Origin: Thermoanaerobaculia bacterium
Lineage (GTDB): Bacteria; Acidobacteriota; Thermoanaerobaculia; Gp7-AA8
DNA: 64,000 nt
Direction: 5' to 3'
NCBI GenBank assembly: GCA_036399695.1
Contig: DASWMP010000294.1
Location: 10,193-74,192, forward strand
The position numbers were made by a program, and so were the translations under genes. The notes under the pieces are model-generated. The model did no database searches, was not told where the DNA came from, and saw nothing but the letters and a program-made list of their open reading frames with translations. Of this stretch, positions 21,358-23,292 are shown one piece after another. Positions within the stretch are counted from its first letter, which is position 1; each line of letters opens with the position of its first letter.

Positions 21358-23292
21358 CTACAACTTAAACACGATCGTCTGCGGCCACCAGGTCTTCACG
21401 CGCTTGCCGTCTTTCATGGCGGGCGTGAAGCGCGACTGCTTCAGCGCGCGGGTGGCGGCTTCATCGAGCCCGAAGCCGACGCCTTTCAGGACGCGCACTT
21501 CCAGGACGTCGCCGGTCTCGGAGACGAACACCGTGGCCACGACGCTGCCTTCGATCCGTTGGCGCATGGCCATCGACGGGTAGGTCGGACGAATCGGCTT
21601 CAGCGGCTTAGGCATGGAGTCGAGGTCGTTCACATTGATCACGTCCCCTTCGCGGACCAGCCGGGCCTCGAAGGCCGGAGCCTGCGTTGGCGTCGTCTGC
21701 GCCGGCGCAGGGACGACGGCGGGCGCGGGCTGCTGCGCGACGGTCTGCGTCTGCTGGACCGGAACCGCCGCGGGCGCGGGAGCCGTCTCGCGGCGCTGCA
21801 TGTCGAGGTGCGTCGGCGAGAGCTCCTCACCGCGCGACGCCACGAGCTGCGGCGCCGGAGTGGCCGAGGGCGCGGCGACCGGAGCGTTCTTCGACTTCTC
21901 CTGCTGCAGCTTGCGGTTGAACTCGTCCTGCAGCTTCATCATCTCGGCCTGCATGCGAGCCTTGACCGCGTCCTCGAACGCTTTCTGCTGCGCCAGCGGA
22001 TCGACCGAGCCGGTCGTCGCGGTCGCGGGAGTCGCGGACAGGGGGTCGGCCATGACGGGCTCCGAGATGACGCGCGGCGCCGCCGCCGGCTTCACCGGAA
22101 GGACGCTCGCGGCCGCGACCTTGGCCGCCGACTGCTGCGCCGATTTCTGCCACATGAAGTAACCACCGCCGCCTGCAGCCGCGATGACGAGACCCGCGGC
22201 CAGGTACAGCGGCATGCGGCTCTTAGGCTTCGGCTGCACGGCGGCAGCGAGCATCGGCGCCGCCACAGGCGCGGGCGCCGGAGCAACAGCGACGGGAGCC
22301 GGCTCCGGTTCGAGGTAGGGCGCGAGGTTGACCTTCGCTTCGCGCTCGCGATCGCTCGCCTCCGCTTCCAGCTCTTTCTTCAGCAGGTTGCTGAGGTAGA
22401 ACGCGAGATTGAACGTGGTGGCCGAATACTGCCCGCCGCTCACGAGCGCCGAGATGGCCTGCTTGAACTCGCCCGCCGTCTTGTAGCGCTGAGAAGGATC
22501 GAGGACGAGCGACTTGTCGAGAATGGCCCGAATGTCCTGCGGGATCTCGGTCCCGGCCATTGTCTTCGCGGCGCGAACGACCTGCGCGTAAGCGCTGGAA
22601 GTCGTGGCGTCAGGCGGCTCGAGTCCGGTCACCACGAGGTACAAAATCGCCCCGAGCGAAAAGACCTCGGAAGAGGGCGTCGACTTGCCCGTCTCGCGGT
22701 ACTCAGGGGAGATGTAGTGCCCCAGCTCGGTGGCCGAGCGCGGGTCGATGAAGGAGCGGATGATGCCGTAGCCGAGCTGTTGGCCGCCGACGCGAATCTC
22801 GCCGTCGTCGCTGATCCAGATGAAGTGCGGCAGCAGCGCACCATGCGTCAGTTTCTGACCATCCGAGGTCCGCAGGTCGGCCGTCGTCGACAACGACAAC
22901 GCCACCCGCTCGACGATGACGATGGCCTGGTCGAGCGGAATCGGGTTGGCCGTCACGGTGGCGCTGCCGCGCGCACGATCGATGATGTGGCGCAAGGACC
23001 GCCCGCCGGCGTAGTCCCACGCAAGGTAGCCGATCCCGTTCTCGACGCCCGCAACCTGGTCGCGCGCGAAGGACGTACCGGTGAATTGCGGAATGATCTC
23101 CGCCGCACCAGCCAGCGTCGCAGCCAGCTCGTCCCGGTGCCCGCCGGTGAAGCGCCGCAGCGCCACGGTAGGCCCGAGCTGCTCGCCGTCGATGCGCCCG
23201 GCACGCCAGAGCTCACCGAGGGCGTCCGCCTCGAGGCGTTTGAAAAGGAGGTACTGCCCGAACTGTTCGAACGGCTTTCTGCTGGTTGCCAT
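21358..23292 (-). CDS. Bitopic protein: cytoplasmic Ser/Thr kinase-like domain (probably a pseudokinase), TM helix, Pro/Ala-rich periplasmic linker, TonB C-terminal domain
   Basis: N-terminal ~300 aa with kinase-fold landmarks but degenerate catalytic motifs: no GxGxxG, VALRR in place of VAIK, HGALLPHF in place of HRDxKPxN, VGGQQLG in place of DFG, SPEY/SLGAILYLVVTG in place of the APE region. TM segment MPLYLAAGLVIAAAGGGGYFMW. C-terminal TonB_C (PIRPTYPSMAMRQRIEGSVVATVFVSETGDVLEVRVLKGVGFGLDEAATRALKQSRFTPAMKDGKRV). Confidence 0.75.
   Translation of the reverse strand: MATSRKPFEQFGQYLLFKRLEADALGELWRAGRIDGEQLGPTVALRRFTGGHRDELAATLAGAAEIIPQFTGTSFARDQVAGVENGIGYLAWDYAGGRSLRHIIDRARGSATVTANPIPLDQAIVIVERVALSLSTTADLRTSDGQKLTHGALLPHFIWISDDGEIRVGGQQLGYGIIRSFIDPRSATELGHYISPEYRETGKSTPSSEVFSLGAILYLVVTGLEPPDATTSSAYAQVVRAAKTMAGTEIPQDIRAILDKSLVLDPSQRYKTAGEFKQAISALVSGGQYSATTFNLAFYLSNLLKKELEAEASDREREAKVNLAPYLEPEPAPVAVAPAPAPVAAPMLAAAVQPKPKSRMPLYLAAGLVIAAAGGGGYFMWQKSAQQSAAKVAAASVLPVKPAAAPRVISEPVMADPLSATPATATTGSVDPLAQQKAFEDAVKARMQAEMMKLQDEFNRKLQQEKSKNAPVAAPSATPAPQLVASRGEELSPTHLDMQRRETAPAPAAVPVQQTQTVAQQPAPAVVPAPAQTTPTQAPAFEARLVREGDVINVNDLDSMPKPLKPIRPTYPSMAMRQRIEGSVVATVFVSETGDVLEVRVLKGVGFGLDEAATRALKQSRFTPAMKDGKRVKTWWPQTIVFKL

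Follow-up and report, generated by a model that had tools for sequence, protein, structure and literature searches.

What is a protein that begins with a kinase fold and ends in a TonB C-terminal domain (TonB_C), and does it work as a TonB at all? The question is raised by one gene in a 64,000-nt stretch of DNA from a Thermoanaerobaculia bacterium (contig DASWMP010000294.1), referred to here as the window. The gene lies on the minus strand and encodes a bitopic pseudokinase–TonB_C protein, which we label PKT. The original prediction, made from the window sequence alone, had read it as a dead kinase fold joined through a single transmembrane (TM) helix and a Pro/Ala-rich spacer to TonB_C, and had proposed that it connects an outer-membrane receptor with cytoplasmic signalling instead of transducing energy. 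The reading that we favour, with a probability of roughly 45%, is that PKT is a conserved, Acidobacteriota-specific, receptor-like inner-membrane pseudokinase that would form a trans-envelope adaptor without catalytic activity, linked to MltG and the cell wall, and would not be a TonB energized by the proton motive force (PMF). The architecture itself was recovered consistently, with Pfam, NCBIfam, AlphaFold2 (AF2), Foldseek and profile matches agreeing on kinase fold, TM helix, Pro/Ala spacer and TonB_C. The coding strand, the ruvX–mltG synteny, the TTFNLAF helix, the periplasmic coiled coil, the large database family and the catalytically intact relatives described below go beyond the original prediction.

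A single gene and its family

PKT is encoded by one uninterrupted, ATG-initiated open reading frame (ORF) of 644 codons plus stop. The window has a G+C content of about 66% and numerous shadow ORFs overlap the gene; the PKT frame on the minus strand shows the high third-position G+C of real genes in this window. A frameshift or stop between the kinase-like and TonB halves, which would have undone the proposed fusion, was looked for, and a pair of separate ORFs was ruled out by the single intact frame and by the abundance of full-length homologues: full-length family queries match more than 1,800 database proteins. Among the matches listed, nearly all are full length, 600–780 aa, with the same layout as PKT.

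The window protein itself has more than 778 database relatives, of which the best 120 are all full length (625–677 aa), 52–89% identical and labelled "TonB family protein"; where named, they come from Thermoanaerobaculia or Acidobacteriota metagenome-assembled genomes (MAGs). A second clade (clade 2), 33–36% identical, gave 976 matches from Thermoanaerobaculia and Holophagales; its proteins pass Pfam Pkinase plus TonB_C, and some are named "serine/threonine-protein kinase". A third group was found in Vicinamibacteria, and taken together the family runs to thousands of proteins. An exhaustive HMMER search with PKT aa 1–330 returned 126 clusters (50% identity) at E≤1e-30, and the family TonB_C was present on 98 of 104 full-length cluster representatives. 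No cultured organism occurs among the named PKT matches. A scan of one genome per species yielded 73 loci, all but one from Acidobacteriota MAGs; locus L075, from a Bacteroidales MAG, matched in TonB_C only and was excluded as a family member.

The cytoplasmic domain is a degenerate Hanks-type kinase

The N-terminal domain of PKT was found to have the bilobal protein-kinase fold. Pfam Pkinase matches it only below threshold (aa 192–271, 22 bits against a cut-off of 31.7), and the best NCBIfam match is PknB_PASTA_kin over aa 82–400 (E 3e-18; 66 bits against an equivalog cut-off of 450). When the family profile was compared with PDB sequences, Staphylococcus aureus Stk1 (E 6e-13), pneumococcal StkP (6e-12) and PknB (2e-10) were recovered. 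An AF2 model built from a 34-sequence family alignment had a mean predicted local distance difference test (pLDDT) score of 66, with 80–93 in the kinase C-lobe, about 90 in TonB_C, and low confidence in the first 40 residues and all linkers; Foldseek of this model against PDB gave Mycobacterium tuberculosis PknA and PknB as the top matches (E 2e-10, probability 1.0). The profile hidden Markov model and structure searches proposed as checks on the fusion recovered both the kinase-like N-domain and TonB_C (aa 568–644).

Two alignments served to locate the catalytic positions: one of the family profile with Stk1/StkP, and one of catalytically intact kinases onto that profile. R46 stands where kinases have the VAIK Lys of beta3, H150-G151-A152 where they have HRD, L154 at the catalytic-loop Lys, F157 at the catalytic-loop Asn and G170-Q171-Q172 at DFG, so that the catalytic loop reads H150-G151-A152-L-L-P-H-F157. 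GxGxxG is absent from PKT, where the loop reads LEADALGELWRA. The intact kinases place their AIK-K, HRD, N and DFG on the same R46, HGA, F157 and GQQ in the profile alignment. PKT still has the APE Glu (E197), the alphaI Arg (R269) and, in alphaF, the Asp/Gly.

The loss of every catalytic residue, as claimed for PKT, extends to its family. A census of 239 full-length homologues, drawn from two clades, showed Arg at beta3 in every one; the HRD Asp occurs in none, the motif reading HG[A/F] and the Asn position F or L; and at the DFG Asp 238 sequences have Gly and the remaining one Ala. Of the 149 best cluster representatives (50% identity), not one carries Asp at either HRD or DFG, and a single one has a beta3 Lys. 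The replacement residues R46, H150, G151 and G170 are invariant across clades, as are D23, G26 and R30. The N-terminal ~285 aa of PKT are, on these alignments, a PASTA-kinase-like Hanks fold, and with every catalytic residue substituted throughout the family this fold is predicted to be incapable of phosphorylation.

Within clade 1, pairs of sequences share on average an identity of 0.75 in the pseudokinase, 0.86 in the juxtamembrane helix that follows it, 0.65 in TonB_C and 0.43–0.58 in the linkers. Conservation is highest in the dead kinase domain and the juxtamembrane helix, and by this measure purifying selection acts more strongly on the pseudokinase domain than on other parts of PKT. Given this conservation and the invariant replacements, the domain appears dead as an enzyme but clearly functional.

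From the juxtamembrane helix to TonB_C

The juxtamembrane motif Y-S-A-T-T-F-N-L-A-F-Y-L-S-N-L-L-K-K-E is the most conserved segment of PKT. Its TTFNLAF core is invariant or nearly so in both clades and in the Vicinamibacteria members, and the identity of the whole helix between clades is 0.47. A Pro/Ala linker of ~40 aa joins it to the TM helix (aa ~361–383), which is single, Gly/Ala-rich and without His or Asn. Across the 239 homologues the mean number of Lys plus Arg residues is 2.9 before the TM helix and 1.5 after it, which fits an N-in, C-out topology; the single span and the K/R-richer N-terminal side bear out the topology that had been put forward.

The MltG TM helix (24540–24600) and the PKT TM helix (22144–22212) both end in small-G-G-aromatic-aromatic (e.g., AAAGGYFFW and AAAGGGGYFMW), as they do in most loci compared. 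This ending could be a shared packing motif or merely a frequent interfacial pattern.

On the periplasmic side, a predicted helix or coiled coil (aa 432–468, AF2 pLDDT 69–84) has an identity of 0.68 within clade 1; its clade-2 counterpart is longer and rich in Ala, Glu and Lys. A Pro-rich spacer follows, aa ~471–555 being Pro/Ala/Thr/Gln-rich and disordered in the model. The C-terminal domain is matched by Pfam TonB_C (PF03544, aa 568–644, E 1e-19; 71 bits, cut-off 24.6) and by NCBIfam tonB_Cterm (TIGR01352, E 4e-13), and the family profile matches PDB TonB C-terminal domains (E 2e-7). Y571 of the YP motif is retained in 234 of the 239 homologues, with Phe in the remaining five.

PKT lacks the defining features of an energy transducer

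The SHLS/His motif of the TM helix is the motor-binding determinant of TonB and TolA (PMC12204202). A hydropathy/composition scan found a TM His in none of the 239 homologues; for the window protein the top-scoring window of the scan fell in the Ala/Pro-rich linker, and the actual TM helix, MPLYLAAGLVIAAAGGGGYFMW, likewise has no His. As a positive control, the short TonBs (235–238 aa) beside ExbB-ExbD-ExbD in L079, L080 and L081 all carry a TM His, and the TonB_C of the short TonB in L080 is 49% identical to that of PKT. The view that PKT is not a classical energy-transducing TonB is upheld by this difference between the family and the exbBD-adjacent TonBs of related genomes.

The reported lack of adjacent exbB/exbD holds for the whole window, in which tblastn detected no exbB, exbD or second TonB_C, and no exbBD was present within 10 kb at any clade-1 locus (~60 loci). 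About 360 aa precede the TM helix of PKT, which does not fit a protein with essentially no cytoplasmic domain. TolA fits no better: Pfam TonB_2 (TolA-type) scores E 0.021, below cut-off, there is no TM His, and the neighbours are ruvX and mltG, not tol-pal. PKT is probably not an energized TonB. Given that TonB_C is present and the transducer-defining features are missing, PKT would be an additional TonB_C protein and not the TonB of the cell.

Conserved synteny with ruvX and mltG

On the minus strand of the window the gene order is ruvX, mltG, PKT and then a terminator-like hairpin. ruvX and mltG stand directly upstream of PKT, on the same strand, in 61 of 65 related loci with enough upstream sequence, including those of the 33–36%-identical clade 2, and the cluster has been preserved between clades that share only 27–35% identity. 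The mltG–PKT gap has a median of ~126 nt and is 264 nt in the window, where a palindrome is inserted.

Elsewhere the context varies between lineages. In clade 2, lptD (upstream of ruvX) and a thiolase gene lie upstream in eight loci. A lipoprotein of ~203 aa with Pfam LpoB/CsgG (weak TolB_N) is encoded convergently, 80–100 nt past the clade-2 gene; it is present in all eight clade-2 loci with downstream sequence (L064–L066, L072 and L077–L080; e.g., L080 12066–12680) and is a candidate periplasmic partner of PKT. ruvX and mltG are the sole universally conserved neighbours, and the other clade-2 neighbours are also envelope-related. The ruvX–mltG synteny points to peptidoglycan or envelope biology, and not to nutrient-receptor signalling, as the probable setting of PKT.

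Catalytically intact relatives

The search in Vicinamibacteria also yielded kinase-TM-TonB_C proteins of 660–1030 aa with intact AIK-K, HRDVSPQN, DFG and SPE (P0469, P0482, P0484, P0485, P0487, P0489, P0491, P0496, P0497, P0501; L081 6629–9508; L082 6659–9613; all Acidobacteriota). They score 135–154 bits with Pkinase, several have an N-terminal receiver domain, and one comes from a Thermoanaerobaculia MAG (DATIUP01). Their genes stand in the context ruvC / kinase-TonB_C – 77-aa ORF – accD – folC. In L081 an exbB-exbD-exbD-tonB cluster adjoins ruvC.

These proteins (e.g., P0482, P0487 and P0491) resemble PKT in architecture, phylum, TonB_C and post-kinase motif, whereas they keep the AIK Lys, HRD, Asn and DFG, often carry a receiver domain, and lie beside ruvC, accD and folC instead of ruvX–mltG. 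In the profile alignment their P-x-x-x-D-L-A-x-F/Y occupies the site of P-T-T-F-N-L-A-F-F/Y in PKT. Pairwise BLAST of PKT against one of them aligns TonB_C only, at 48% identity, the kinase domains having diverged too far for this method, and a sister relationship of the two kinase domains is suggested by the profile alignment and the post-kinase motif only. We know of no characterization of the intact kinase-TonB_C proteins. Their existence shows that transmembrane signalling kinases in Acidobacteriota use TonB_C as their periplasmic module, and this in turn favours sensing or docking over energy transduction for PKT.

Proposed role and its alternatives

Under the favoured reading of PKT as a trans-envelope adaptor, TonB_C would cross the periplasm and dock by beta-strand addition to a TonB-box-like segment of a partner in the outer membrane or periplasm, which may be a TonB-dependent transporter, an envelope lipoprotein or possibly the peptidoglycan layer. 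Occupancy would alter the oligomeric or conformational state of the protein, and this change would be relayed inward by the coiled coil and by a TM helix of small residues. Cytoplasmic proteins, among them possibly an active Hanks kinase, would then find a scaffold or an allosteric partner in the pseudokinase and its juxtamembrane helix, and the status of the outer envelope would be coupled in this way to peptidoglycan strand termination or elongation together with MltG. PKT would be comparable to a cell-wall sensor of the PknB/StkP type in which TonB_C takes the place of the PASTA repeats and scaffolding that of catalysis. A broader version, in which Acidobacteriota possess a hitherto unrecognized class of receptor (pseudo)kinases with periplasmic TonB_C input, strikes us as doubtful: PKT would pair in a HER3-like manner with intact kinase-TonB_C paralogues, and the two would sense the state of the outer membrane, or of those of its proteins that carry a TonB box, and control how fast peptidoglycan strands are terminated and elongated, as a diderm counterpart of the PknB/StkP checkpoint with another sensor module.

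Several points weigh against the adaptor reading. The link to MltG is one of gene order alone, and the partners on both sides of the membrane are hypothetical. The loose mltG–PKT gap leaves co-transcription only putative. ruvX–mltG is an old and widespread pair, beside which PKT could have been captured and then kept by low rearrangement. The modelled N-lobe (aa 1–40) is of low confidence, and the degenerate pocket may still bind nucleotide, R46, D23, G26, R30 and H150 being invariant. An exbB-exbD-exbD-tonB cluster lies 3–6 kb from the PKT gene in two of three annotated clade-2 loci (L079 and L080), and coupling to a motor may be achieved through contacts other than SHLS.

The last two points bear on the possibility that PKT is a genuine energy transducer, a TonB/TolA paralogue driven by a distant ExbBD/TolQR-type motor, with the pseudokinase in a regulatory or localizing role as in GltJ/GltG with AglRQS; it might, for example, act like TolA and tether or constrict the outer membrane where the wall is being synthesized. 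Such a role would suit the layout of TM helix, spacer and TonB_C, the long Ala/Glu/Lys-rich helix of clade 2, which resembles TolA domain II, the exbB-exbD-exbD clusters 3–6 kb away in L079 and L080, the precedent of GltJ as a TonB-like protein with a cytoplasmic domain, and the known link of Tol-Pal to septal wall remodelling (PMC12204202). However, the TM helix has no His (or Asn) in the 239 homologues while the adjacent bona fide TonBs carry His, the nearby exbBD clusters already own a short TonB, motor genes are absent within 10 kb at ~60 clade-1 loci, and Pfam TonB_2 is sub-threshold (E 0.02); we judge energy transduction quite unlikely. The original prediction held in setting PKT apart from energy transduction, whereas the outer-membrane receptor to which it linked PKT is still hypothetical. 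Signalling from nutrient receptors would have TonB_C bind the TonB box of ligand-loaded transporters and the pseudokinase report their occupancy inward, FecR/FecA-like, maybe by activating a partner Hanks kinase, with the adjacency to mltG incidental. The canonical TonB_C with its YP motif, the absence of the motor-binding His and the large CarboxypepD_reg-type receptors at Thermoanaerobaculia loci are consistent with it, as are the kinase-TonB_C and receiver-kinase-TonB_C proteins of the same phylum, in which TonB_C appears as the input domain of a kinase. Nevertheless, genes for TonB-dependent transporters, sigma/anti-sigma factors or kinases are not conserved beside PKT, ruvX–mltG is the only context common to all clades, and the single copy per locus or MAG together with the high conservation looks more like housekeeping than a nutrient-specific sensor. 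We hold receptor signalling of this kind to be unlikely.

It is very improbable that PKT is a relic, that is, a decaying former kinase-TonB_C receptor whose cytoplasmic function has gone and of which only the TonB_C/periplasmic part, or nothing, still works. The loss of all catalytic residues would be expected of such a protein, but the pseudokinase (0.75) and the juxtamembrane helix (0.86) are its best-conserved parts, R46, H150, G151 and G170 are invariant across clades, and more than 1,800 homologues have kept an intact ORF. A role as an anti-phage defence kinase was suggested by PADLOC/NCBIfam matches to PD-T4-6, MADS6 and PglW. These matches are weak (E 1e-7 to 3e-17, far below the family cut-offs) and span the generic kinase fold only, the catalytic residues are absent, and the locus is one of the core genome (rpoD, dnaG, mutS2, lhr, mfd, ruvX, mltG) with phylum-wide synteny; this candidate, hardly credible on such grounds, was rejected.

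Relation to known systems

The nearest solved relatives of the N-domain in sequence and structure are the PASTA kinases (M. tuberculosis PknB, Streptococcus pneumoniae StkP, S. aureus Stk1/PknB and Bacillus subtilis PrkC). They share with PKT the topology of a cytoplasmic Hanks domain, a juxtamembrane segment, one TM helix and an extracytoplasmic sensor, and are also tied to cell-wall synthesis genes. In pneumococcus, StkP, EloR and MltG are functionally connected. PKT differs from the PASTA kinases in the loss of the catalytic residues, in the coiled coil, Pro/Ala spacer and TonB_C that stand in place of the PASTA repeats (no PASTA domain matched PKT in Pfam or NCBIfam), and in its diderm host phylum. 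With canonical TonB (Escherichia coli TonB, PF03544) PKT has in common the TM helix, the Pro-rich spacer and the C-terminal TonB_C with YP motif. Unlike it, PKT has a folded cytoplasmic domain of ~330 aa where TonB has a few residues, a TM helix at ~361 without SHLS/His, no exbBD beside it, and an additional conserved periplasmic helix.

Membrane proteins that use a cytoplasmic dead Hanks fold as an envelope scaffold are represented by M. tuberculosis MviN (MurJ)/ActPs3 and by EssB/YukC (PMC12599244); they belong to other lineages and have other partner domains (a flippase and a type VIIb secretion system ectodomain, respectively) and other replacement motifs than PKT. Seven families of bacterial pseudokinases have been described, namely ActPs1–3, DLHK, GLW, CP1 and DYD; TonB_C is part of none of them, and none is reported to occur in Acidobacteria. 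In the GLW family, the nearest candidate, GLW replaces HRD and Leu/Trp replaces the beta3 Lys, while the ActPs are confined to actinobacteria (PMC12599244; bioRxiv 10.1101/2025.01.12.632604). Membership of PKT in GLW or another described family was ruled out by its HG[A/F] and Arg motifs and its Acidobacteriota taxa, the comparison being one with the published descriptions only. TonB-like bitopic proteins with cytoplasmic domains and/or roles outside nutrient uptake are also known: GltJ, which belongs to the Agl-Glt gliding machinery of Myxococcus, is reported to be TonB-like with a folded cytoplasmic domain that acts as a switch (PMC11135422), and Anabaena SjdR is a TonB-like protein that shapes septal peptidoglycan (PMC8262864). 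GltJ/GltG and SjdR resemble PKT in these respects, whereas in place of the kinase fold GltJ has ZnR/GYF domains and SjdR a short 65-aa segment; GltJ uses a TolQR-like motor, and mltG synteny is not a feature of this comparison group.

TonB, Acidobacteria and MltG go unmentioned in two recent overviews of Ser/Thr kinases and pseudokinases in bacteria (PMC12599244; bioRxiv 10.1101/2025.01.12.632604), and no fusion with a kinase is described in a 2025 survey of how TonB and TolA evolved (PMC12204202). Full-text literature searches returned nothing relevant that links a pseudokinase or Pkinase with TonB/TonB_C, or MltG with a pseudokinase, in agreement with the earlier view that the architecture is uncharacterized. 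The architecture is visible in databases as precomputed Pfam Pkinase plus TonB_C and yet, as far as we have found, apparently unstudied. PKT is a variation on known kinds, the receptor-like pseudokinase and the non-transducing TonB_C protein, and is built of familiar modules. PKT would constitute an eighth, phylum-wide family of bacterial pseudokinases and the first with a TonB_C ectodomain, and TonB_C would be used for docking or sensing outside PMF-driven transport. The near-obligate pairing with mltG offers a testable handle on the coupling between the outer envelope and cell-wall growth in a poorly studied, globally abundant soil phylum. A systematic mis-annotation is also corrected, as the "TonB family protein" entries of the PKT family, which number in the thousands, are unlikely to be TonB energy transducers.

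Gene features and wider neighbourhood

The features of the PKT locus are listed in Table 1. The start of mltG was inferred as a GTG one base past the ruvX stop. The hairpin, which begins 48 nt past the PKT stop codon, is the probable end of the transcription unit.

Table 1. Positions of PKT, its domains and its minus-strand neighbours in the window
Feature	Coordinates	Strand	Evidence
PKT, whole gene, bitopic pseudokinase-TonB_C protein	21358..23292	-	single ORF; full-length homologues 52-89% identity
Hanks-type pseudokinase domain, cytoplasmic, aa ~10-285	22438..23265	-	Pfam, NCBIfam, AF2, Foldseek, family profile
Juxtamembrane helix, aa 286-318	22339..22437	-	motif conservation and AF2 helix at 293-319
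Single TM helix, aa ~361-383, MPLYLAAGLVIAAAGGGGYFMW	22144..22212	-	hydropathy/composition scan; AF2 helix 361-379
Periplasmic helix or coiled coil, aa ~431-470, QQKAFEDAV..MMKLQ..SKNAPV	21883..22002	-	AF2 helix 432-468 and conserved columns
TonB_C domain, aa 568-644, YP motif Y571-P572	21361..21591	-	Pfam PF03544, TIGR01352, PDB TonB chains
Terminator-like GC-rich hairpin	21279..21310	-	14 bp stem, 12 G-C pairs, T-rich tail
mltG, YceG-family endolytic murein transglycosylase, ~357 aa	23557..24630 (approx. start)	-	Pfam YceG E 2e-80
ruvX, YqgF-family nuclease, first gene of the ruvX-mltG-PKT trio	24624..25031	-	Pfam RuvX E 4e-34

The palindrome over the mltG stop (23356–23566) is nested and ~210 nt long, with 43-nt arms (93% complementary) inside 30-nt arms (87%). 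It occupies most of the 264-nt gap and may influence co-transcription of mltG and PKT. A 31-nt copy resembling one of its arms, with three mismatches, lies at 58431–58461, where none would be expected by chance. The palindrome may be an element of the repetitive extragenic palindrome (REP) or miniature inverted-repeat transposable element (MITE) kind, or a structured RNA.

Divergent from ruvX, on the plus strand at 25186–27005, are genes for a PilT-like T2SSE ATPase (391 aa) and a 259-aa Zn-ribbon protein. The ATPase is 78–92% identical across clade-1 loci in which PKT is only ~50% identical. Both proteins were considered as partners of PKT and set aside as lineage synteny, being found in clade 1 only and absent from clade 2. 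Directly downstream of PKT, at 14459–20799 on the minus strand, lies an operon for a TetR regulator, an HlyD-type membrane fusion protein, an AcrB-type RND transporter and an outer-membrane efflux protein. The same position in clade 1 is taken in 46–48 loci, including the closest relative L005, by genes for three GT-C-like membrane proteins and a bacterial topoisomerase IB, which are not in the window; conservation of downstream genes was assessed by tblastn, high-GC shadow ORFs having confounded ORF clustering. The efflux operon in place of these genes indicates a local rearrangement at the putative terminator. What lies downstream is not the same from clade to clade, nor in the window, and therefore no functional link was drawn from it.

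The wider window is core chromosome, with rpoD, dnaG, mutS2, lhr, mfd, a Slt-type transglycosylase and a peptidyl-prolyl isomerase. The second lytic transglycosylase is a Slt70-like protein of 758 aa with an SLT domain and TPR repeats, encoded on the minus strand at 53718–55994, 30 kb from mltG. A tyrosine recombinase of the Phage_integrase family (56251–57297) borders a stretch at ~56000–60000 with a lower G+C content (0.61) and a strongly negative GC skew, and may belong to an integrated element or be a XerC/D-type gene.

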